Origin: Ramazzottius varieornatus
Lineage: Eukaryota > Animalia > Tardigrada
NCBI GenBank assembly: GCA_001949185.1
Contig: BDGG01000018.1
Coordinates: 186,001-250,000 of the forward strand
DNA: 64,000 nucleotides
Direction of reading: 5' to 3'
Shown here in pieces: positions 2,883-64,000 of the stretch. A program made the translations under genes and the position numbers. How positions within the stretch are numbered: position 1 is the first letter of the stretch; every line of letters starts with the position of its first letter. The notes under the pieces were generated by a model. It did not search any database and was not told where the DNA came from. It worked only from the letters and a program-made list of their open reading frames with translations.

Positions 2883-4512
2883 TATACTTGCTGTCGCTCA
2901 TTTCTCATGGATTGAGCAAGTGAACAGCCTTCATGGAAGTTGTCAGAGGATGTGTGGTGGACTACTGGCTACCTGACTGCTGTTGTTTTATGCTAGCCGA
3001 AGAAGCCCCGTGTAATCTTCTCCGCCGTCTCCTACCAGTTGTGCTCGGCTTTCCCGTCTTCCTGTTTGGTTTCTTCCTGTGCTGTTGGATAGGGTACGTG
3101 GCTGGCCTTCAAAGGTTTATCACGTGATGCATAGTTGACTCGTCGTTTAACCTGACTGATTGTGTTTCAGTCGACGAAGCATCCTGCCCCACCATTGCCT
3201 GCTGGCTGTTGTCGGCGGTTTCGCGTCTTCTCCTCGCCTCAACGGTCATTCCTTTAGTCTTTGCTGCCCGTTCAAGCTACACTAGAGTCCCCTGCGCATT
3301 TCTGTTTTGTTTTCTCCTAAATTAGTGGCAGTGAGAGCAGGGATATACGCTATTGATATATTTGTATGCACGTGAGTGTCTCAGGTCGACTTTCATATTG
3401 TGGTGCATGTAACTTCCAGATTTATAACACGTGCGAGACAATACATCCGAACATATATCCAGCGCATCATTCTCTGAGCAGTTACAATACATTTTAGTAA
3501 AATATGGACGTCATCATTTCTGGTGGGCGTGTCGGTGTGTTCTCGCCTCCTTCAATCAGTTTTCAAACTGTGTTTCCACTGTTCCGACTTTCGATATAGC
3601 CGTGTTGTGCTGCTGTAAGACCAGTAGTCAACTGATCCTGCTGATATCAAGGACGACACCGTGGCTCGAGTGCTCCTGTTGATCGGTGACATGTCGGCGC
3701 TGACTTTGAAGAACCGGGCTCTTCGCCCCATCGCTGGACATTTTTCGTCGCTAAATAGGCCTGGACCGATAAAGAATGCTCTAAATGCCGGTAACAAAAC
3801 ATTGATACATAAGGTATTTGAAGCTTTCGCTCTTTGGGAAGCGTCTGCTGCTGTCGCTCCTAATTAACCGTATTCGCCCTGAAACCCATGACCAGCCCGA
3901 GTTTGTATACAGTACATCCTCCTTCGACAGTTACTCCAGTTTTGACCATTGACTCTATTTCTTTAAGTTTGTTTCACCGCCTCCGATACTGTCCCCGTAT
4001 GTTGTAGTTGGACGGTTCGTCGGCTGAACCTGTCCTGTACGTATTGTGTGCGTACGGTTTTGTAGTGACCCTCCCAAAAGCTGACAGACAGAAGGATAAA
4101 CGGATATCGATCAAAACGACTGCGTGATTAAATTGGTATCTCATCTGCGGTCAATGGGGATCAATGATACTCTATTATGGTCAAAGTGGTGATTAATTTG
4201 CAATTGATAAATGATTATCCACATATGCTTCAACACATGCATGCACAGACTCTGCAGTTCCCGACTTTGATATGCACAGCTTTGCATCGTCCCTGCCATG
4301 CTAGTAGATTTCCTCCTCCGTTTATCACGTACATCTAGTTTTCCCATACGACAAGCACCACTTTTACGCCCGATAGCTTTGCCTCACAGTCGTCGAGAGG
4401 TTCTTGGGCCTCTTTACCGAGATCGACCGCTGCCGATAGTTTTTTGTACTGATACTTTTCTCTTGCAAAGAGCCAAGCGTATCCAGCGATCCAAGAGTAT
4501 TCAGCTTCTGCT

Positions 4513-5540
4513 ATGTCTAACCCATTGCAGTTCCGGGGCTTCGTCCGCCATTACTCCACATTTCAACCTCCACTGCTAACGGGCCCCGCAGACCTTGCTT
4601 TCGCCACTGACATGTATCGAGCTCGACCACCGGCCTTGGACAAGACAGCGCCATCAAGTAACAGGCAACCTCCGTCCGAAACGACCAACGCTTGTCGCCG
4701 CTACCGAAACTGGATGGTCGAGAACGAGGACGACGAAGAAAGCGTTAACAGTAACGACTCGACCAGTTCGCCAGTCCGAGGCCAGTCTAGCAGCACAGAA
4801 GCCGATTCTGATTTACCATCTCCCTCCCATCTGACCTTTTGTAAGTGCATGTTGCCATTTTGTAGTGTCGGGAATCAGATGTCGATGACACTCTAATCTA
4901 TGGAGCTATATGTCCGTACTATTGAGTAATATGAACTTCAATCTGTTTGACAGTTTCGCGCAAGAAGCGAGATTCGAAGAAGGAGCGAAGAGCTCGAACG
5001 ACCTTCAGCAGCCAGCAAACGCAGCTACTGGAGCTGGAGTACCAACGCTCCGAGTACGTCACTCGCCCTCGTCGCTACGAGCTGGCCACTCAACTTTGCC
5101 TCAAGGAAGTCCAAATCAAGATATGGTACCAAAATCGGCGAGCCAAGGATAAACGTATCGAGAAAGCCACTTGGGACCGCCAATATCGGTAGGTAGAGGG
5201 ACTAATGACCCCACACCATCATTGCATTTATTGTATAGCAACACATTGATTTGCCGATGGCGTGCCAATAACTGTTTCGTAGCGGGGAAATGGGGTTAAC
5301 CCAAAGTGTTTAATGGTTATCATTTCCGTTGGATTTTGCAGCTGTCTAGCATTAACTAGGAATAGCAGGCAACTTCCTTCCTCGCCATCGACCACCGGCA
5401 ATTATGGGCTCAATCCCCCGCTCACTCCAGCTTCCTTTCCGCCAGCACCACTTCGACTTCCGCTGCACATGTTCCCCACATCCGCCGCCTCATTCCCACT
5501 CCCCCTGCTCCAACAAGTCCGCCCTCATAATAGTAATTGA
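4513..5540 (+). CDS. ro: Rough-family homeobox transcription factor; exons 4513-4840, 4954-5188, 5342-5540
   Basis: Homeodomain RRARTTFSSQQTQLLELEYQRSEYVTRPRRYELATQLCLKEVQIKIWYQNRRAKDKRIEKA; the AKDKRIEKA..D.QYR end is typical of Rough; GT-AG introns keep the frame. Confidence 0.88.
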
Positions 5541-6282
5541 TAACATCGTACAGTAGCAAATCATAGTCTGCTTCATCTTTGCATCTGAAAATAATCAGTG
5601 CCATTTTCCCATATAATATATTACACTTATTTGAGGGATGAAGTGGCTGTGTTCGTATTATTTTAAGCTCTTGATTGGGTCATGAGAAGTATCATCGGTG
5701 ATCAGTTTTCGATTGGCGCTTAGCAAAAAGGATTGCGTGTTTAAAGGGCGTTTGAACAAGTCGATCATCGACAAGGCGATATCCGCCCTCAAATCAGTGC
5801 AGCAATGTTCGACCTCGTTAACGGCCTTCACGAGCGCAAAACGAGGAAATGATTCGTGAAGATGTGGCAGGAAGCCCGTCTGTACTTGTCGTGTAATCGG
5901 TCACGCGAACAAGTCTTCCACTCACAAACAACCATCAAACTTTCCACCTGCCCTGTCTTACAGCCATTCACTGTATATTCAAACCGGTTCACAGGACAAA
6001 AACTCGAATACTCGTCGGACCACAGCTAACAAGAAAAAACCCTACCCAGTCATAAACTGTACACCAAAATAAAACAAACAGAAAATAATCGTCGTCATAT
6101 AAATCTTTTCGGAATGCGGTAAACGCAATAAACGTCGCTGATTGAAAAAGACAGACGCAAAAGCTGCAAAAGGAGATCAAATAACGATTTTGATTCGTCA
6201 TGAATGAAAAAATCAACGTGGAAAACAACAACAAAGGAAACGTTCATTTTTGATTTACAACAGAGAAAGAGTGCAGTTTTCA

Positions 6283-9200
6283 TTATAGTGGTTCATGCGG
6301 CGACTTGAACTGAAACATATCCAGCCGGTTGGTAATCTGCGGAAAAGCGAAGCTTCGCGCCGGCGTCAGCTTGCCGCTCTTTCGTGTACTCGATGTCGTC
6401 GTAGAACTGAAGGTAACGCCAGGTATCGTCACACTTTCTTCAACCAATGTTATTTCTTCGACCGGCTGATCAACGACGCTTCGCCGACTAACATTCTCCG
6501 TGTTCTCCGCGCCGTTGATCACTTGTTCACGACGCTGCATTTCGGCAGCTCGTTCGAGGCGCTGGAAGGTCCCCACACAGACAGCTATCAAGGGTGCCTA
6601 ATCGAATGTAGAATAAATATGACTGCAGTTCGGCAAACAAGCTCCACAGGACTATTTGCCACAGTGGCGCACGTTCCCATCATTATCTGGTGATGTTGCG
6701 CGCCACTTGTGTAAGAACGATCTTGTCAAGATTGTTACTACTCAAGTGGCGTACGCTCCCAGTGTTACTGGCTGAAGCCTGCAATACTTGGGAAGACGAT
6801 GCTCTTGGGACATCCTTATACGAGGTATAGGACATAATTGAGGCTTAGGGATTTTAGGAGCATAATTCGGGCAACGCGGAAAGTTTAGGCTTCGTTATCA
6901 ACGCTTGATCGATTTCTCATCGTATACCTGTTGACACAACTTTGGGCATTTGTACACTGGACAGACGCGTCTCTCCCCAACGACAGATTCTTCTGACCTA
7001 CAGCATTTCATCGTTCCCAAACCTGTTAGACCTTGAGGAGAGAGAGATTAATCTACCTCTGAAATCAATAAAGACGTGATTACATGAAGCAAAAGCTCAG
7101 AAAAAATTCGCCCGAGTCATGATGCGAAAATGGCTATGGCCGAATTGTGTTCTCTACCTCGTAGGTCCCAAATATTCTAGTTGATATCTTCAGAACAAAT
7201 TCCAACCTGCTTAGAGTAGATGTGGAGGAGGCGTTTTTGGCAGGAGGAAGTTGGGCTGTCCACCGTGTTATGGAAGCTAACGGGGACGACCAGGTCCAAA
7301 CAAGCCGTGTCTTGGTTCTGTATGGCCTTCTCTTCTGAAGGCTCTCGAAAACTGAAGGATATTTCCTTGTGGGAAAACGCAAGCAAAACTTCCTGTGAGA
7401 AAATAAGAACAAGCTCGGAACAAGCTCAGGATAAGGACGAAGTGAAGGAGGGCAAGACGTACTGCTGAAATGCTTGCTGCCTTTAAGGAGGAAAGGACGA
7501 AGAAGCCTCGCTGGTTGACGGCCAGCAAGACCGACATTTCGTTCTGGTCGGAAAACAAGCTGGTAATGCTCAGGCTCATTGGTACGTCAACTGTGCCGTG
7601 AAACATGGCCGCACTGAAATTAAAACTCAGATGACTGGATAGACCCAAGTTCTATTGAAATTAGTCGATCGCTTCACGAATTTCTGAGAAATGAAGCTGA
7701 AGATTACCCATAAAGTACGTCTTGCTGGCATATTTCGAGATATCGTTGGCGAGCGTCGTCACGGTGTCGAATTTCTAGCATCTCGTACGCAGAGAGGATT
7801 TCGTTGATGGTATCCTCGCGCTTGCTGGAGAAAATGTTGGCAAACTGTGTGGGAAAGAGACCGGAAGGAAAGTAGCCTTCCATTGAGTCGCTGTCAAACA
7901 AGGAGACAAATCAAAGCCAGCTGTGTATCGTCTCCAGCATTTTTGCAGAGTGCAAAGAGACTTCTCACTGGAGTTGCTGCATCTTTTGAGGACTGATGGT
8001 ATTGGAGTATCTACCGTTATCGCGGAAGATGAGCAAACAGCCCAGCTTCAGCACGCTCTCCCGCGATAAAGCGTAACGCTTGCTCAGTACGTTGGACTTT
8101 GCTTCGTGGAAGAGCAGATGCTGCAGACGATGATCCGTCACCTACGGAAGAATAGCATATAGTGCATATCCCCTTTCAATTTTCAACGAACAGCGCACAG
8201 TGGCCTCCTTTTCGCAGAAAGAATTTACCTGCCGTTCGACGTCCACAGGCAACCAAATCGACCTTCTGACATAGACCACAGGAGCTAAAATCACAAAAGT
8301 TACACTATCAGCTTAAGAACGAAATTATACGGAAGAAAAGCTACGGCACAAGGAAAATAATAGGAAGGCAGGACGCACTTTGGTCGTTGGGCTTCAGTAC
8401 GGTGGAGTATCTTTGCATGTAATACTTCCAGTATTTCTGGATCCAAAATGGATTGTGGTGGGGCTTCAGCTGTACTTCTGTAAAAGACAAGTAAAAGCAA
8501 GTCGGGATATATACGGACTCAAACAGAGGGCAAAAAGGAGGGGTCGAAAAACAGAGGAAAAGAGCGCGCGACGGTAAAAACTGGCGTAACGACAGTGCGA
8601 TTCTAAGCGCAGTTTATTCCGCCGTGCGCTGTTGGGGGGCGTGACGACATGCCTATCTCCCGTAAGGAAATCTCACCCAAAGCGTCAGTCAAATTGGCAA
8701 ACCACACAGCCAAGCATTTTCGTCCTTGGTCAAAGTCCAGGCTTCGCTTCTTGATGACTATGTCCACCATTTCCCGAGCGAGACATTCGTAGCCAGTGAC
8801 GGGAATGAAGTCGATAGAGGTATAGTCCATCAGGTAGACCTTGATCTGCGCTCGAACTGCAAGCACCAGTCCCAATGACAAATATGCCTGATTGTTGATT
8901 GATACGGGCAAACCCATCTTCTTACCGAACAGATTCTCGATGAATTTGTCGAACGACTTGCCTCGGGGTCTCTTGACGGGAAAGAGGGGAAGCTCCGGCT
9001 CGGCAATGGTGGAAGAGACAGCTTCCGTTCCATCTCCTGTAAATGCAATCCAGTGGGTGCAACGAGTATTTTGGAGGTTAATATCGAACAGAATTTTCTA
9101 CTGCAGCACCTTCATCGAGTCCAGACAGTGGAGGAGCGGGACGGTCGTCCTTTCGACGTTTCTCCAATAGCACGCTACATTCATGGACGAGGTTTCCATG

Positions 9201-55300: not shown

Positions 55301-57537
55301 CCCCATTGTCTTGTCACTGCAACCTTATCTGCCCCACTCAAGATGGACACTTTTGGCCCCAGCTTTTAATCGCCATTATAAAATCCAGACATCCGCTCGC
55401 AGCCTATCTATCTGCTCTGTGTAAGTCCAATAATATGTAGTCCATTCTTGTCTTAGGCATACACAGCACATCTCTGCGCCGGTTGACCACTTTCCCATGG
55501 ATGACTGCACTTACGCGCCGAATTTACCAAAACTGCCGTCATACCGTGATAGTACATTTGCTTTGCGCGACAACTTGTCGGTCCATTACTTTCATTCGTA
55601 GATTTGCTTGTTGTGTCACCGTTAAAGAAAGAATGGTGGTTTCCAAGTTGAATGTACACAGGCACAGTGCAGACCACCTTCCCGGTAGAGGACGAGCGCA
55701 GCCGATGAAATTAGCGTTCTTCTATCAAGACCAGCAGTTGATTACGGGGCTGATTTAAGTGGGCGCATTAAAATCTTAGGAGAAGTGGGGCGATTGTGTA
55801 AAGTAAGTGATCAGTCTAAAACGCGTAAATAGTATCATCTTGTCATCAAATGAAGCGCTGCGAACGTTCAATGGATGTACTAAGGACAGTTGATTCTCAA
55901 GTTGTGATCTTGTTGGCCCCAGCCCAAACAATAGTTAGATTGTCTTCCATTGCGGCAAAAGTGCCGCTCGCCACTTTTCGGCTTATCAAGACACAGCCGC
56001 TATTTAATAGCCCACCATTGTACTACCCATCAAAAAGAGCCTTACGTTTGTCTTGGCATTTTAAACTCCAAGTGGAAGTGATGCATAAATTAACACTTGT
56101 AAGTCTGTTCTTGTAAAGAGCCGCAAAGCCACCCCAGTCTTTTCCGGCTATATGCTGAGTAACGAGCGGGAACAAAAAGAGCACATGTCGCTTAAGCTCA
56201 GTCTTGACTTTTGTGGAAGGCAGACAGTAGAGCTCTGCCATTAATCATGGCGGGGGAGGGAATTGTGACAGCCGAGGAATCTTAAAGCATATAGTGCGCT
56301 CAAAAACCGGCAGCTAGCCTTTCTTCCTCCCATGTCCTGCTCGGCTGGCAAAGACAATATTCCACTGTTTATCTTTGGCAGCGTCGTAGGAAAAAGACTT
56401 TGCATTATTCAGCGGCGCACAGCCAAAGGAAGGGGTTAATTTTAGCTTTTGTTAAGAGAGCGCAACTCTTGGAGTGACTGACGTTCACCGTTTGTGCTTT
56501 GTGGGCAGAGTACACAGTGAGATAACCGTCAAATCAAGCGTGCAAAGAAGGCCGTCCGTACAAGCAAACTTCGAACCTCATCAGACATTACATTTGTTCG
56601 TCAGGACAAAAATACCCCCCGCAAAAGAGCCTTGTGGCAAACAGTCGGAGGCATCACCCCAGACAAAGTCCATTCTCGAATGTGACTAGGCTCTTGTCAG
56701 GCTTGCGACAAGCTACTTGACCAGGTTGTCTGCCACGAAGAACTCTGGGCTTCGTCTTTGGAGAACTGAGTAGAGTCCCGTGACGCGAAGAAGGCAAGTT
56801 GTTTGTTTGTTTGATGGTCCTTCTTGGCCAAGGTGGATGTAGCTTCTTGTCCAGAATTACGGCCAAGTTAGGATCTGCCACTTCCGACATGACAGTAGTT
56901 GGTGACGGTTGGGAGACCTCCTTCATTCTCATCTACCGTATAAACACAACTTTGTCTTTGTCGGCTGCTGCATGTTTATTGTGTACCCAAGCTTTTTATC
57001 TTTTGTCGACACCAGCAAAAGTTGGCCATTATGCTGCCTCCAACTATGGCCAGAAGAGCGATCGTATTCCGCCGATACTAATCATGTTAGGCACAGTTGC
57101 AAAAAGGCCGTAACGAGCCAGTTGTGTGTCGTCTTTGGGCGATTAACCGGCCATGATAAAAAGAAAACAGAGGAGATTGTTTCGCAAGGCACTGAAATAA
57201 GCCCAACGTTGTCCATGCCATCATTGCCCATCAACCCATCGGACATGCTTGCTGCGCCACATATTCGCCGTTTAATGCCCAACTGGACGCATCTCGCTAA
57301 CTCCACCCACCCGCTGTAAAAAGCATGGCCCATTGTTCGTCATCCGACCGTAAAATTCGTTTAGAGCGGCAACTTCGTCCTCAATTTTGACTGGTTGAGG
57401 CCGGACTGACGGACCGCCTATGGGCGTATCCCGCTTGCTCATTTGATTGTGCAGAAAGAAAAACAATTCTTTCGCCGTGTCGACTGTCGACTTGTCTTGT
57501 TGAAGCTGAGCATGACGATGGCTGTTCTTTCTTGCAG
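46400..57537 (+). promoter_or_regulatory. ~11-kb gene-free upstream / 5'-intronic region of SoxD; candidate TATA box at 46571
   Basis: No credible ORF or recognisable TE; TATAAA at 46571-76; the first SoxD coding exon starts at a splice acceptor (57536-37), implying upstream exons. Confidence 0.5.
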
Positions 57538-57539
57538 AG

Positions 57540-60153
57540 ATGCCATCACGGCGGAAGAGTACGCCATGTAAGATTTCCTCCGTACAGCCCGACTCCTCCG
57601 CCTCGACGTCGCCCGTTAAGAACGAAGCGGAATCGCCTGATCGTGCCTCGCCTCGCTCCTCGCCAGATTCCTCCGACATGGACCAACCTGCCGTCCTCAA
57701 AATACAACCGGAAAGTCCGCAAGACGTCAAGGAAGAGTCTAGCCAGTCCGCGAAAGACGGGACCAGGGCGAACGGGAGCGAGTTCAACGTCGACGAGAAC
57801 CTGATCCTGCACTACATGCAGGAGAACACCAAGCTGGTCTCGTCCATCCTGGCCGAGAAGGATCTCTCCTTGGGCCACAAAGAGTTGTGCTTACAGCAGA
57901 TTATTCACTGCGTCAAGACGGCCAGGGACAAGTTGCGAATTACAAACAAAGATCAGGTAAGAAACAGACTGTTCTTGTTCTCGCCATCGAGCTTGTTTGC
58001 GGACCGGACAATCGTTTTATTCATATCTGATTCGGATATCGATCGAAAGCCACAAACGTCCTTCTTGTTGTTGACCACGTAACCCACCAAGTCCGCGTCG
58101 TAATATAACCCCCAAAGTGCGCCGGTGCTTCTCGGGAGAATGTTTGGGGTTCATATTTTCATGGAAAATTCAAGATGAAATAAATGGGCGGGATTTTTGT
58201 TGGAAAGCGCGGCACGGCCTTGAGTGAGGGCACCGGCTTTGACTGCATTGCACTTCCGGTTCGTGCTGTACGTATACTGATCCTTTTTCCCTTGCAGAAC
58301 TCGACTCCTGCGATCACACACACCAACGGTCACAGCTACCAGCCTTCAACCTCAACGTCCAACCAGCGATGCGACACTCCGACCAGCTCGGTCATCAAGA
58401 ACGGCAAGTCCTCGCCAAAGACCTTGTCCACTTCTCCCCTGTCCATCCCTCCCTTCGGCTTGCCCGCCGTCGCCTCCGACTCCTCGCAGGCCAACGCCGC
58501 CATGTGGGGTATGCTCCACTGCTACCCCTTCCTCGCTCAAATGCAGGGTCTACCTTTCGGAAGCCTACCTCCTTCCCCCGACTGGTAAGAGAAATGTCCA
58601 TCTGGTTTGCCCGTTACCTTGTCCAGTGGTGTTCTTCTTGGTTAGGTCGGCCCTGTCCAAAGCTCCCTCTCAAGAGGGCAAACGTCCTCATGGTCAAGAA
58701 GCCACGACCAACGGGGCTCCTCTCAACCTCTCGTCACGCACATCCTCTTCGAAAGGGGGCAAAGAAGGCAGTAACGGCAGACACAACCCTGACGCCATGG
58801 ACCTGTCCAAGCCCAAGCAGCAACGGCAGCGCTCCACCGGCGAACTGTCCATGGCTGGTGCCCGCTCCTTTCTCGATCGAGCCAGCTTTGCCCAAGATCC
58901 CCGATTCCATCGGACGGACCTACAAGCCTTGCTGCAGAACAAGCACGCCAGGATGGACGAAGGCATGGAATACGCCTCTGACGCTGAATCCGCAACCATG
59001 GGTAAAAGTTTTAGTCAAATATCAAAAGCAAACCATGTGGCGCACGCTTCAAGCCCATAAAACTGTGACCGTGCGCCATTTGGAAAGTAACAATGGAGCT
59101 CGGTCAGATCGTTGTCCCAAGTGACGCACTCTTCCAGCCATTGTGAGAGAGAGCGTGCGTCACTTGGGAAAGGATACGGTCGCGTGTGTTTGCCGAGCTC
59201 CTCATTTTGGAATTTACTTCAACTGAGTTTTGTTTTGTTTTTTTCCAGAGCGATCAGTGGGTGGAAAGAGTGTCAAGCATCCGAAAGCCAGTCGGAATGC
59301 CGATGAGGAGGCGATAAAGCGACCGCACATCAAGCGTCCCATGAACGCCTTCATGGTCTGGGCGCGCGAAGAACGGCGCAAAATTCTCAAAGCTTGTCCG
59401 GACATGCACAACTCCAATATCAGTAAAATTCTTGGTACGAACGTTTTACACAGTACCAAGAAGAATGTTGGGGCTTTACGAGCGTTTGATGGTGTAAAGA
59501 GCCATAAAGTTGCAAGTGATCAACGCTCTTTTTTGTGTCTTTCAGGTGCCAGATGGAAGTCCATGTCCAATGATGAAAAACAACCATTTTATGAGGAACA
59601 GAGTCGCCTTAGCAAACAGCACATGGAAAAGCACCCTGACTACCGGTAAACGCCGAGCATCTTTCACTTTACATTCAAAACGGAATGATTGAACATGAAT
59701 GAGAGCTCGCCAAGCAAATTCGACCCGATTGTTTTCTCCAGTGTCGCACTTATTCTATTGCCTAGGCTGGAGGCATGCGCCACTTCAGGAAAGATATGGT
59801 CGATTTTGGTTGTCTCAGGTCGCAGTTGGTAATTTCTCGGCCTCCTCAGACGACTGTTGTCCGCCGCCGAACGCTAAAAGCATACTAGTAGAAGTTGTCA
59901 AAATTTAGCCGATTGGGCACGGATTTTCCATCATTTTGTCGTTTGATTGGTTGGCAGGTACCGTCCTCGGCCAAAGCGGACGTGTGTTGTGGACGGCAAA
60001 AAGTTGCGAATAAGTGAGTACAAACACCTGATGCGCGAGCGTCGCCAACACGTACGCGATAACCTGCTACAAGGCGATGAATCTTCCAATTCTTCGATAG
60101 CGAACTCCTTCCACGGCCACGACTCACCCCTGCCCTATACTCCTGAAAGCTGA
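57540..60153 (+). CDS. SoxD: SoxD-group HMG-box transcription factor (Sox5/6/13, Sox102F, egl-13 group); exons 57540-57956, 58298-58584, 58646-59001, 59249-59434, 59546-59645, 59958-60153
   Basis: [93 protein letters not shown]; CtBP-type PLNLS and MDLSK motifs. Confidence 0.95.
59032..59172. repeat. Tandem pair of the N25 hairpin family in a SoxD intron
   Basis: Arms 59036-45/59071-80 and 59120-29/59155-64 (compensated GTGACGCAC/GTGCGTCAC). Confidence 0.88.
59735..59790. repeat. N25 hairpin-family copy in the last SoxD intron
   Basis: Arms 59740-49 (AGTGTCGCAC) / 59775-84 (ATGCGCCACT); 25-nt spacer. Confidence 0.7.
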
Positions 60154-60941: not shown

Positions 60942-62403
60942 TTACGGTATGAAGACCTTGACTGTTGGCCCCACTCGGGATTTCCCGTTTCCGGGGGCGG
61001 GATGAATGAAGCCTCCTCCTCCAAATCCTGCCGTGGCCACCATGGTGGGCTGAATTCCCACTGGAGCGCGGCAAACCATGCAGTGAGCCTGAAACTGGTT
61101 GACGTTGGCCAGGTAGCACTTCTCGCAGGCCGCAACGTGGTTGCATGGCTGGAACATTATGTTGGCCGGTTCCTCCTTGCACAGAATGCACAAGCCGCGC
61201 TCTTCCTCCCTCTTTTTGACCGTCAGCTTGCCCACTTTCACTAACAACAATAAACGGGAAATGGGCACATCATTTAAACTAGATCTTTATCCCAAGCGGC
61301 GCACTCGTACAGCCAGTAACAGTGAAAATATGCGCTACTTGTACAGCCAATCTTGACGAGTTTTCCAACTGGCGCACGCTATTGGCCAGTATCACTGGGA
61401 ATATACGCCACTTGGGAAAACGAAGTGGATCAGTTTGTCCGTCCACGTCTCAAATACACTTTTAAAGATTTCACGAAGGCTTTTCCAAAGGAGAAGGACT
61501 GAAGAGAGACTTACTGGAGAGTTTGGCTACCTGTTTGACCAAGTTGTCTCGGTCGGTCTTGATCACCCACGCCTCGTCCGGTTCCAACAGCCCGCCATTT
61601 GTGCCTTTAATGTTCATGGCCTGCAGCTTTCCCTGTGGCAAGAAGACTCAGCGTTACTATAAGAACCCTCCAGAAGCCTTTACAGAGCTCATCTTACGGA
61701 AATGGCGTCTTGGAAAAGGTCGAAGACGACGGTCTGGTCCACCTTCAACGTGACGCACTTGGCCAAGTTCCCGGCTTGTAGACGAGCTCCTGTGGCACTG
61801 TTCTCGTTCAGATCCTTCTGCCAAGAGTACAGAGACTTTATCGGAAGACTAAGTTGGCAAGAAGAAAATGAAAATGGAAGCTCACATTGCTGAAGAAAAC
61901 ATCATCCACCACTTCACCATCCTCCAAGGCCATCTTGTCCCCTTCCGCCGGTTTGATGAAGCCCCATCCACTGCAAAAATAACAAAGATCGAGGAACATC
62001 CACAGGTTTTAGAGAATCCTTCACCGGAACGTACCGGAAGACGTGGAAGGATTTAATACGGCCGGAAACGTGCTCCCCTGCAAGAGAAAAACCCCAAAAC
62101 TTGGACTTCTAGGTGACAGAACCAAGGACGACTTTCCCTCTTACCGATCAGCTGAAGATCCTTCTTGACTGCTGGAGCAACCACCTGCTTGACGGTAGCA
62201 GCCTTGGGAGCTGGAAAAGCCCGAGGAGGAGAGCTGGTGGATGGCCCAGGTTGACATTCAGGAACGGAAGCAACAGGTGCCTTCTTCTTGGCCATCTTGG
62301 CCAAGCCGCGAACCGCCTTGCTTTTCTTGGCCTTGACCACTGCCAGTCCTCTCACCTGCAGGTAGGCACCGTAGGCCTCCACCTCCTCGTCGGAGGACGA
62401 CAT
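60942..62403 (-). CDS. Cold-shock-domain + C3HC4 RING protein, ~307 aa; exons 62403-62145, 62077-62035, 61970-61886, 61817-61698, 61632-61515, 61240-60942
   Basis: All five GT-AG introns are phase-compatible. CSD: GRIKSFHVFRGWGFIKPAEG..DDVFFSN..TLKVDQTVVFDL..GKLQAMNIKGTNGG. RING: CILCKEEPANIMFQPCNHVAACEKC..CMVCRAPV. Confidence 0.78.
61290..61420. repeat. Tandem pair of the N25 hairpin family in the last CSD-RING intron
   Basis: Arms 61295-304/61330-39 and 61368-77/61403-12; 25-nt spacers. Confidence 0.82.
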
Positions 62404-62771
62404 CTTTCTGGACAGACCTGTGGAGAAATTAGTAAGGAGTATGATGGATCGAGCGACAGAGGAGAAAGAGAGCCTTCCTGGACGCAAAACACCGAAGAAA
62501 TGAAAACAGGAACCAATTAACCAAAGAAAGGGTACGTTTTCGAAAGAGATTCATTTTCCCTAACCCCTGAGCGGAGCTGGGCCTTCGCCCTTGCTTCCCC
62601 CAGTCACCCCAACTGGGCCACCCCATGATCGCCACTCGTACCGACTCATTCATGTCATTTTCTAATCGATACCATAGCTGGAAATATCAACAGGAAAAAT
62701 GCTACAGCGTCTATAACCGTCGACAGAAGTAGACGTACACTAGAGTGTACTAGAGAAACTCGAAGGTGAAG

Positions 62772-64000
62772 TCAAACTGAGACGACAAAGTTGCCAAATC
62801 TTTTCCTATGGGCTTCTTCCAACAGGCGTATCCTTTCGCCATCGCTCAGTCCATACTGTTTCCTCTGGAAGGACTTGGCGTTGGGTGGTTGATGATCCAC
62901 ACTGAGGAAGACACAGTCCTGGAACGTCTTCCAGTCCTTGGCGCTGAGTCTATCGGGACTGATATCGCCCCCCTTCATCCACACATCCTTCTCGTCGTTT
63001 CTCGCTCCATTGCCGCCCACCACCTTCACACTAAACCCATACACCACCCTCACGACCTTCTCCCCAATCTTCGTCTCCACTCCATCACACTTCCTCATTC
63101 TGCTCACTTTGATCTCTTTCGTTGTCTCAGGCAACATCTTTGCCAGTTCATTCTCAACGAGATCTGATACAGTATGTGAGGAAGCTTTCTCGTCAACTGG
63201 CAGCTCTATCCTGACAAGCCCTACTTTCTGCTTCTCCTCCGATTTGCTAAAATAGTACGTCTTGCTTTGGACGTCTTCGATGACACAAACTGCTTGGTGC
63301 TTCCTCTTGACACGATCTTCAGCCCGCATCGAGTACTTGGTGACGCCTTCGCTACTGCAGTAGCCGGAAGTCAGGACATCGGGCGAACAGAGAAGACACT
63401 CGTTGCCCTCACTGCACAATCTGGAAGGAGTGTACACCAGAAAGGAAGTACTCTTCAAGTATAGCTTGACAAAGTTCTTGATGAGCAGGTGGTTCTTGTA
63501 GGCGTTACAGAGGGACTTTAGCGGACAACTGGGGCACTGTGGCTTCCTTTCCGTGCAGACCTGCGGTCAAAAAGTAGCGTAAGCGGCACCGACATTTGTC
63601 CTTGTGGAGCTTGAGAATTACGACAAACCTTTTGTGCGGTAAGACTAATGGCGTCCTCGATGTCCGTCACTTCGTCAGAACCAGCACAATTCCGCATTTG
63701 GCTGTAAATCTTCCGACGATGAGTGACGGCAGCTGCGCCACCGTGGTTGGAGCTGATACGACCCATTCGTGTCAGCATCCGTCCCAGGTCCACGTCTTCC
63801 GTGTCCAATACCTTCCGGGAACGTGCAAAGTTCCTGGCCAGCGTCACCACCTCTTCGTTCTGAAAGCATAAGATCAGAAGGTTGGGAGTATAGAAGAAAG
63901 GAGAGGGACTAAAACAGTCGCAATCTCCGTAACCGGAAGTTGTACACCAGGCGCTGAACGAGCGCGCTGTGCAGTGCCTGCGCAGCAGATGCGTACAATT
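62772..64000 (-). CDS. HhH-GPD/endonuclease III-like protein with 4Fe-4S (FES) motif and chromodomain-like C-terminus; visible exons ~63859-63629 and 63560-62772, 5' part presumably outside the window
   Basis: Removing the 68-nt intron 63628-63561 gives EDVDLGRMLTRMG...DIEDAISLTAQKVCTERKPQCPSCPLKSLCNAY (C-x6-C-x2-C-x5-C), in frame with ORF 62772-63458. Confidence 0.68.

Follow-up and report, generated by a model that had tools for sequence, protein, structure and literature searches.

The window, a stretch of 64,000 nucleotides of Ramazzottius varieornatus DNA, ends within a minus-strand gene whose last two coding exons give, once spliced, a frame identical to residues 208-546 of RvY_18265, a protein of 546 amino acids (Table 1). 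The initial annotation had proposed a hidden spliced gene of the HhH-GPD family, unlike the standard animal enzymes, and both points were borne out. The intron between the two exons was skipped exactly by contigs of all three RNA-type sequencing runs, which came from three studies, and was not skipped by the DNA run (no listed run is recorded as RNA, and the term RNA-type is used accordingly). The locus is transcribed, since these contigs carry spliced joints. Beyond position 63860 the RNA contigs continue into sequence that is absent from the window and translates as ISEADKNTT, corresponding to residues 198-206 of RvY_18265, and residues 1-207 gave no tblastn match within the 64-kb window. 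The exons encoding residues 1-207, including K123, therefore lie beyond position 64000. RNA data, suggested in the initial annotation as a means of completing the gene model, have thus confirmed the intron and extended the model past the window end. The RvY_18265 gene is real, expressed and conserved in eutardigrades.

Table 1. Features of the RvY_18265 gene within the window, in the direction of transcription
Feature	Positions	Strand	Remarks
Upstream intron, 3' part	63861..64000	-	acceptor ...TTTCAG; RNA contigs run out of the window from 63860
Penultimate coding exon, residues 208-284	63629..63860	-	second HhH helix remnant, catalytic-Asp helix, invariant DIE(D/E)
D229-V-D231-L-G-R234	63779..63796	-	corresponds to human MUTYH Asp236/Asn238/Arg241, with Asp in place of Asn and the other two unchanged
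Intron, 68 nt, GT-AG, spliced	63561..63628	-	joint in contigs of RNA-type runs; ends checked
Last coding exon, residues 285-546 and stop	62772..63560	-	
4Fe-4S motif C286-x6-C293-x2-C296-x5-C302	63507..63557	-	in 6/6 sequences covering the site; weak PF10576
Connector C333-x5-C339-x2-C342, predicted Zn site	63387..63416	-	aligned to mouse/human zinc-linchpin cysteines
Nudix-like domain, residues 366-506	62895..63317	-	without Nudix box and FSH motif; AlphaFold2 model and structural matches
Beta-hairpin, residues 444-455	63048..63083	-	strand-turn-strand in model; place of the MUTYH H-x-F-S-H loop, position inferred
C-terminal extension	62775..62894	-	conserved helix L-x-x-A-x-x-K-R/K; no canonical PIP box

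Just downstream, positions 60945-62403 of the minus strand hold a spliced gene for 307 amino acids, with five introns seen in RNA contigs. Its product carries a C-terminal C3HC4 RING (PF13920, E 2e-11), and its middle stretch presumably resembles a cold-shock domain (G-x-I-K-x-F...GWGFI...DVFF); exon pieces gave no Pfam match. A protein combining the cold-shock-like stretch with the RING could be an RNA-binding ubiquitin ligase. The stop codon of RvY_18265 and the next ATG are separated by 369 bases (62404-62771). Both genes are covered by a single RNA contig of run X4, and the contigs of two other runs break near 62480-62545. An AG acceptor-like site, for which no donor was seen, immediately precedes the downstream ATG, possibly a sign of trans-splicing or of a 5' exon that was not sampled. 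Within a 274-nt intron of the RING gene, two pieces of 18-20 bases (61361-61423) match another contig on opposite strands in both DNA and RNA-type runs, which suggests a small inverted-repeat element. On the plus strand, a multi-exon HMG-box gene (PF00505, E 8e-22) occupies positions 57516-60153, and its HMG box resembles that of SoxD.

Relatives of RvY_18265 and descent from MUTYH

An exhaustive search with the last exon returned nine matches, six of which are relatives of RvY_18265. The other three (P0009, P0011 and P0012) were dropped as repeat-rich proteins matched over short stretches by chance. The named full-length orthologs are XP_055336406.1 of Paramacrobiotus metropolitanus and BV898_08647 of Hypsibius exemplaris, about 30% identical, and four further relatives (P0004, P0007, P0008 and P0010), assigned to tardigrades by similarity, are mostly partial. 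Including RvY_18265, the family set comprises seven sequences, three of them full-length, and the motif counts given below are limited to the sequences covering the respective site. All named family copies are annotated as hypothetical or uncharacterised. Apart from RvY_18265, word-based homolog searches brought up just a 70% relative and two MutY proteins from bacteria. A metagenome scan by pattern gave 109 matches, none of which was confirmed, and the 462 matches of a second scan led to one locus, a bacterial mutY. The latter gene (L001, 3488-4579) has five, not six, residues between the first two cysteines of its Fe-S motif (CNKPAKC). Across the three full-length proteins of the family, the invariant positions amounted to 12/21 in the Fe-S region, 12/59 in the connector, 20/132 in the helical/HhH region and 19/141 in the Nudix-like domain. 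The occurrence of intact orthologs in three genera and the invariance of the Fe-S region were counted for a probable retention of the family under selection.

The gene had initially been regarded as neither NTHL1 nor MUTYH; the searches point to descent from MUTYH. When the seven-sequence profile was compared with PDB sequences, mammalian MUTYH scored best (E 4e-11), followed by Geobacillus MutY (2e-8), ROS1 (0.014) and EndoIII (0.04). Mammalian MUTYH was also first in the single-sequence PDB searches with RvY_18265 (E 9e-4), P0005 (2e-9) and P0008 (5e-7). Beyond the Fe-S motif the match continues through the metazoan connector and reaches the first strand of the C-terminal domain. In NCBIfam, 6/6 family sequences scored best with TIGR01084 (mutY), at 27-39 bits, far below its cut-off of 286.5, while nth (TIGR01083) matched none of the six at E up to 1. 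Pfam yielded only the sub-threshold Fe-S motif, the penultimate exon alone found nothing in PDB sequences, and the ESM Atlas returned adenine-glycosylase clusters at 0.88, as a lead only. The domain order is that of MUTYH, with a helical domain, the 4Fe-4S motif, a zinc-linchpin connector and a Nudix-like domain. Set against this descent is the three-sequence profile, with which bacterial MutY and mouse MUTYH scored about equally. RvY_18265 is very probably the tardigrade ortholog of MUTYH.

This assignment would correct the record of tardigrades lacking MUTYH. In the table of a manual survey, as far as it was available, MUTYH, NTHL1, MBD4 and NUDT1 were given 0 copies in both R. varieornatus and H. 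dujardini (PMC6797769). The table may contain errors: Drosophila is credited with one MUTYH, whereas the available part of PMC2941479 reports none in insects, and a gene that is labelled NUDT1 and has a homolog in R. varieornatus appears elsewhere. The accessible data of PMC11233135 flag BV898_08647 as tardigrade-specific, which would likewise need correction, and give the P. fairbanksi ortholog the automated name mutY, with human MUTYH as its tblastn homolog; the MUTYH link is already in print, as an automated label. Among the 8,991 rows listed from the R. varieornatus gene table, HhH-GPD appears only on OGG1 (PMC5034306). MUTYH is not mentioned in the available sections of PMC13407396, and no paper describing RvY_18265 or its degenerate site was found in our search, outside which most subscription papers lay.

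Active-site and metal-binding positions

For the N-terminal domain, hhalign returned a match at 92% and E 6e-7 over residues 115-304, and Atlas structure rows named HhH-GPD at a TM of 0.40. Folded alone, the domain reached a pLDDT of 48.8 (low confidence). Foldseek found nothing for this model at E up to 0.001, and structural comparison placed MUTYH third, tied, at Z 5.5 and rmsd 4.9 with 126 aligned residues. The assignment of the N-domain rests on the profile alignment. The alignment of DVDLGRMLTRM with the catalytic-Asp helix of MutY, proposed initially, was confirmed by profile and sequence searches.

In human MUTYH, according to the available text of PMC12000561, Glu134 is the general acid and Asp236 the nucleophile, tuned by Asn238 and Arg241; the N238S and R241Q variants are inactive, and N238S alone abolishes activity. 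At the site of the general acid (SExMLQQT), RvY_18265 carries K123 and the other full-length orthologs R124 and R103 (Lys/Arg in 3/3), the bacterial controls having E. The site lies in a gap-free YRxxVx[E/K/R] block, found in three alignments and by a fixed-offset count; the active-site geometry is read from alignments at about 19% identity and from three full-length sequences only. In five sequences, the catalytic-Asp site reads D, D, D, F and R (Asp kept in 3/5), with Phe in Hypsibius and Arg in P0008. The Asn site of the same sequences reads D, D, N, H and H, the Arg is kept in 5/5, and D-x-N-x-x-R is whole only in Paramacrobiotus (1/5). The motifs QQT, LGYY and [LM]xG[IV]G occurred nowhere in the seven family sequences (0/7), and the HhH motif [LM]PG[IV]G and LGYY, present in 2/2 bacterial controls, occurred in 0/3 full-length orthologs. 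At the helix lining the MutY pocket, DFNQA of MutY is replaced by DIE(D/E), in which D273-I-E275 is invariant (6/6) and D276 is kept in 5/6. Residues 76-232 of RvY_18265 have a net charge of -7, the HhH and hairpin regions being acidic, and a net acidic N-terminal region is seen in two of the three orthologs. The arginines R234 and R238 are invariant, and R241 is also kept.

Judged by these alignments, excision of adenine opposite 8-oxoG would quite likely be impossible for RvY_18265, as a basic residue stands in for the general acid and protonation would not take place. The initial annotation had considered the protein possibly non-catalytic because of a Glu at the EndoIII Lys site. The suggestion itself is seen as right and the site is not Lys in any plausible register, whereas its reading as Glu depends on the register (Asn208, Glu209 or Glu210); the better ground lies beyond the window, in Lys123, or Arg, at the general-acid Glu of MutY. 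A MUTYH of the ordinary kind, evolving fast but still excising A opposite 8-oxoG, its losses being alignment errors, would agree with the full domain set, the low alignment identity, the automated mutY/MUTYH label of the P. fairbanksi ortholog and the presence of OGG1 in R. varieornatus. We regard it as very improbable, since the block at the Glu site is gap-free by three methods, the motifs are missing anywhere in the sequences, whatever the alignment, and the lost residues are extremely well conserved across eukaryotes, according to the available part of PMC2941479.

The retained acidic residues bring in a second reading, that of a rewired glycosylase acting on another substrate, with Asp229 as the nucleophile and E275/D276 as the acid, perhaps covering for NTHL1. 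It is favoured by the retention of Asp and Arg in both Ramazzottius and Paramacrobiotus, by the conservation of D273-I-E275 and D276 at the pocket-lining helix and by the score of 0 for NTHL1 in both surveyed tardigrades. We nevertheless consider such an enzyme unlikely, given the Phe of Hypsibius and the Arg of P0008 at the Asp site, the loss of the HhH, QQT and LGYY DNA-handling motifs and the Arg that two genera carry at the Glu site. Arginine is incapable of forming an EndoIII-type Schiff base.

The metal sites are preserved. The initially reported C-x6-C-x2-C-x5-C motif was confirmed above shuffle expectation, with two motifs in the six frames of the window versus a mean of 0.07 in 100 shuffles, and is kept in all six family sequences that cover the site; the kept cysteines are predicted to bind an Fe-S cluster. 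The three connector Zn cysteines are likewise kept in 6/6 sequences. In MUTYH, Zn is bound by one His and three Cys of the connector that docks 9-1-1 and APE1 (PMC8266592, available part); vertebrates have the full H/C/C/C set, whereas most arthropods show H/X/C/C (10.64898/2026.05.27.728240, available part). The N-terminal His ligand of MUTYH has no clear match in the family, and H38, invariant in 3/3 full-length orthologs, is a candidate fourth Zn ligand. H38 belongs to an N-terminal IHxxDxxxRLL segment (residues 37-47) that is conserved in tardigrades and for which no MUTYH counterpart was found.

The C-terminal domain

In the AlphaFold2 model (mean pLDDT 55.6; over residues 371-500 most blocks at 65-85 and two near 50), residues 366-506 adopt a Nudix fold of about 140 residues. 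The top structural match of the tail was the C-terminal domain of MutY (1RRQ; Z 12.9, rmsd 2.4 Å, 117 aligned), and 7EFA gave Z 12.3 and 2.7 Å with 121 aligned; overall, the mouse and human MUTYH C-terminal domains stood at Z 12.3 and 11.9. Ordinary Nudix hydrolases tie with MutY/MUTYH, one of them at Z 12.7. Foldseek showed MutY/MUTYH in all matches listed for the tail down to rank 24, the 50 structural matches listed all cover the tail, with titles nearly all of Nudix/MutT/MutY proteins, and an Atlas search on the tail returned NUDIX_4 clusters. The Nudix box Gx5Ex7REUxEE is absent from the seven family sequences (0/7), and the sequence alignment of this domain to bacterial MutY is unreliable.

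The tail had initially been read as a chromodomain, and the protein as a chromatin-targeted glycosylase acting in the removal of modified bases. Pfam gave no match to Chromo at E up to 10, and the chromo pattern Y-x-V-K-W occurred in 0/7 family sequences. No chromodomain or RRM entry appeared among the fold matches listed for the tail, which excludes nothing by itself. The separate structure runs proposed for each half had a mixed outcome: the tail came out as Nudix, and the N-domain gave only the tied MUTYH match described above. Based on the model, the tail is a Nudix-like fold of the MUTYH 8-oxoG-recognition type, not a chromodomain. A DEMETER-like tail, our first idea, was dropped as well, given the missing Pfam support, MUTYH as the best profile match and the Nudix-like tail model. 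A glycosylase with a chromodomain or DME-type tail would share the Fe-S motif, the ROS1 profile match at E 0.014 (Fe-S region only) and the Cys-rich stretch that follows the Fe-S motif, as it does in DME. It is extremely unlikely, as the E-value for MUTYH is lower by nine orders of magnitude and its match is longer, Pfam searched up to E 10 shows neither Perm-CXXC nor RRM_DME nor Chromo, and the Nudix assignment of the tail contradicts it. No support was found for chromatin targeting or for the removal of modified bases. The assignment of the tail to the Nudix rather than the chromo fold and the descent from MUTYH are two findings that the initial annotation had itself named as counting against its reading.

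The available text of PMC12938805 attributes the reading of 8-oxoG to the FSH loop of MUTYH. The FSH motif HxF[ST]H was found in 0/5 family sequences covering the hairpin; of the controls, the bacterial P0017 and P0018 carry the variant HGVTK and L001 carries HIFSH. MUTYH also ends in a PIP box for PCNA (PMC8266592, available part), and the corresponding QxxhxxFF was absent from the five sequences that reach the C-terminus (0/5). Their conserved C-terminal segment, residues 524-539 of RvY_18265, had no MUTYH counterpart that we could find. As far as sequence can tell, the protein has the descent and architecture of MUTYH and lacks the Glu, HhH and FSH features of an active MutY.

Proposed function and comparison with known systems

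On balance, and with modest confidence, we favour a MUTYH that has lost its catalysis and persists in DNA repair as a metal-stabilised scaffold which does not cut. A metal scaffold that is kept while the chemistry is lost fits a pseudo-enzyme. K123, or the Lys/Arg at its site, could pair with the invariant acidic E275/D276 and seal the adenine pocket; contact with DNA would persist through the Fe-S domain and its arginines R234, R238 and R241, and partners in repair or checkpoint control would dock on the Zn-held connector and the new C-terminal helix. Against the scaffold stand the Asp229 and Arg234 kept here, the whole D-x-N-x-x-R of Paramacrobiotus, the poor N-domain model (pLDDT 48.8) and the weak induction by irradiation; the acidic HhH and hairpin regions speak against both catalysis and DNA binding.

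In the accessible tables of PMC11233135, the H. exemplaris ortholog rose 1.7-fold after irradiation (log2 0.76, padj 8e-6) and the P. fairbanksi ortholog 1.5-fold (log2 0.56, padj 6e-5). In the rows listed for bleomycin and for A. antarcticus (3,640-6,656 per file) the gene did not appear, nor was it in a 5,627-row proteome table. The induction was counted as linking the orthologs to damage; it is small beside the 421 genes above 4-fold. Such weak and inconsistent induction would also suit a role outside DNA repair, with the Fe-S/Zn/Nudix body no longer binding DNA and acting elsewhere as a redox sensor or protein scaffold. In its favour, none of the DNA-contact motifs checked is present, two of the three orthologs have the net acidic N-terminal region, and the N-terminal (IHxxD, RLL) and C-terminal conserved segments are new. 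This role is nonetheless distinctly unlikely, for the cluster-adjacent arginines R234 and R238 are invariant and contact DNA in MUTYH (PMC12000561, available part), and the orthologs of two species are induced after irradiation.

Beyond the scaffold as such, it is a tentative and rather doubtful proposal that tardigrades disarmed MUTYH rather than lost it, so that a pseudo-glycosylase of Hypsibioidea and Macrobiotoidea would shield or bind oxidised and abasic DNA and recruit 9-1-1/APE without the strand-break-prone intermediates to which active MUTYH gives rise when oxidative damage is massive. In human cells, 8-oxoG-induced senescence is partly rescued by loss of MUTYH, according to the available part of PMC11751180. 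An animal well known for tolerating oxidative and radiation damage appears to keep the body of MUTYH and to drop its chemistry, which raises the questions of how A:8-oxoG pairs are handled and whether excision at such pairs does harm when damage is extreme. The family is also a natural test case for the roles of the Fe-S cluster and the Zn linchpin apart from catalysis. If MUTYH was indeed disarmed, tardigrades would hold a natural separation-of-function allele for these non-catalytic roles, in an invertebrate with all three linchpin cysteines.

Among the known systems, Mag2 of S. pombe is a homolog of the HhH glycosylases that is inactive and binds to abasic sites. It belongs to the AlkA/Mag branch, is not known to have an Fe-S cluster or Nudix domain, and offers a precedent for a selected, non-cutting HhH glycosylase homolog, although it was not a relative by any test here. 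DEMETER/ROS1 shares the Fe-S motif, the Cys-rich stretch after it and a C-terminal alpha/beta domain; it differs in that its match (E 0.014) covers only the Fe-S region and the tardigrade tail is Nudix-like, without Perm-CXXC or RRM_DME. EndoIII/NTHL1 has in common the HhH-GPD ancestry, the Fe-S motif and, in two family sequences, a His at the Asn site, whereas its match (E 0.04) is confined to the Fe-S motif and no catalytic Lys is found in the plausible registers; NTHL1 has no Nudix-like domain. Bacterial MutY is the best NCBIfam family for 6/6 sequences (TIGR01084) and its C-terminal domain the top structural match (1RRQ), yet it lacks the long Zn-type connector, and the tardigrade gene has introns and no sign of recent transfer. 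Compared with mammalian MUTYH (7EF8, 7EF9, 8FAY), the tardigrade family has Lys/Arg at the Glu134 site and, in R. varieornatus, Asp at the Asn238 site; QQT, LGYY, HhH PGxG, FSH and the PIP box are missing, the first two Zn cysteines are 5 apart rather than 6, and there are extra N- and C-terminal segments. What is shared with the mammalian enzyme is the domain order, the 4Fe-4S motif, the three linchpin connector cysteines, the Asp236/Arg241 equivalents of R. varieornatus and a C-terminal domain of Nudix type that has no Nudix box.
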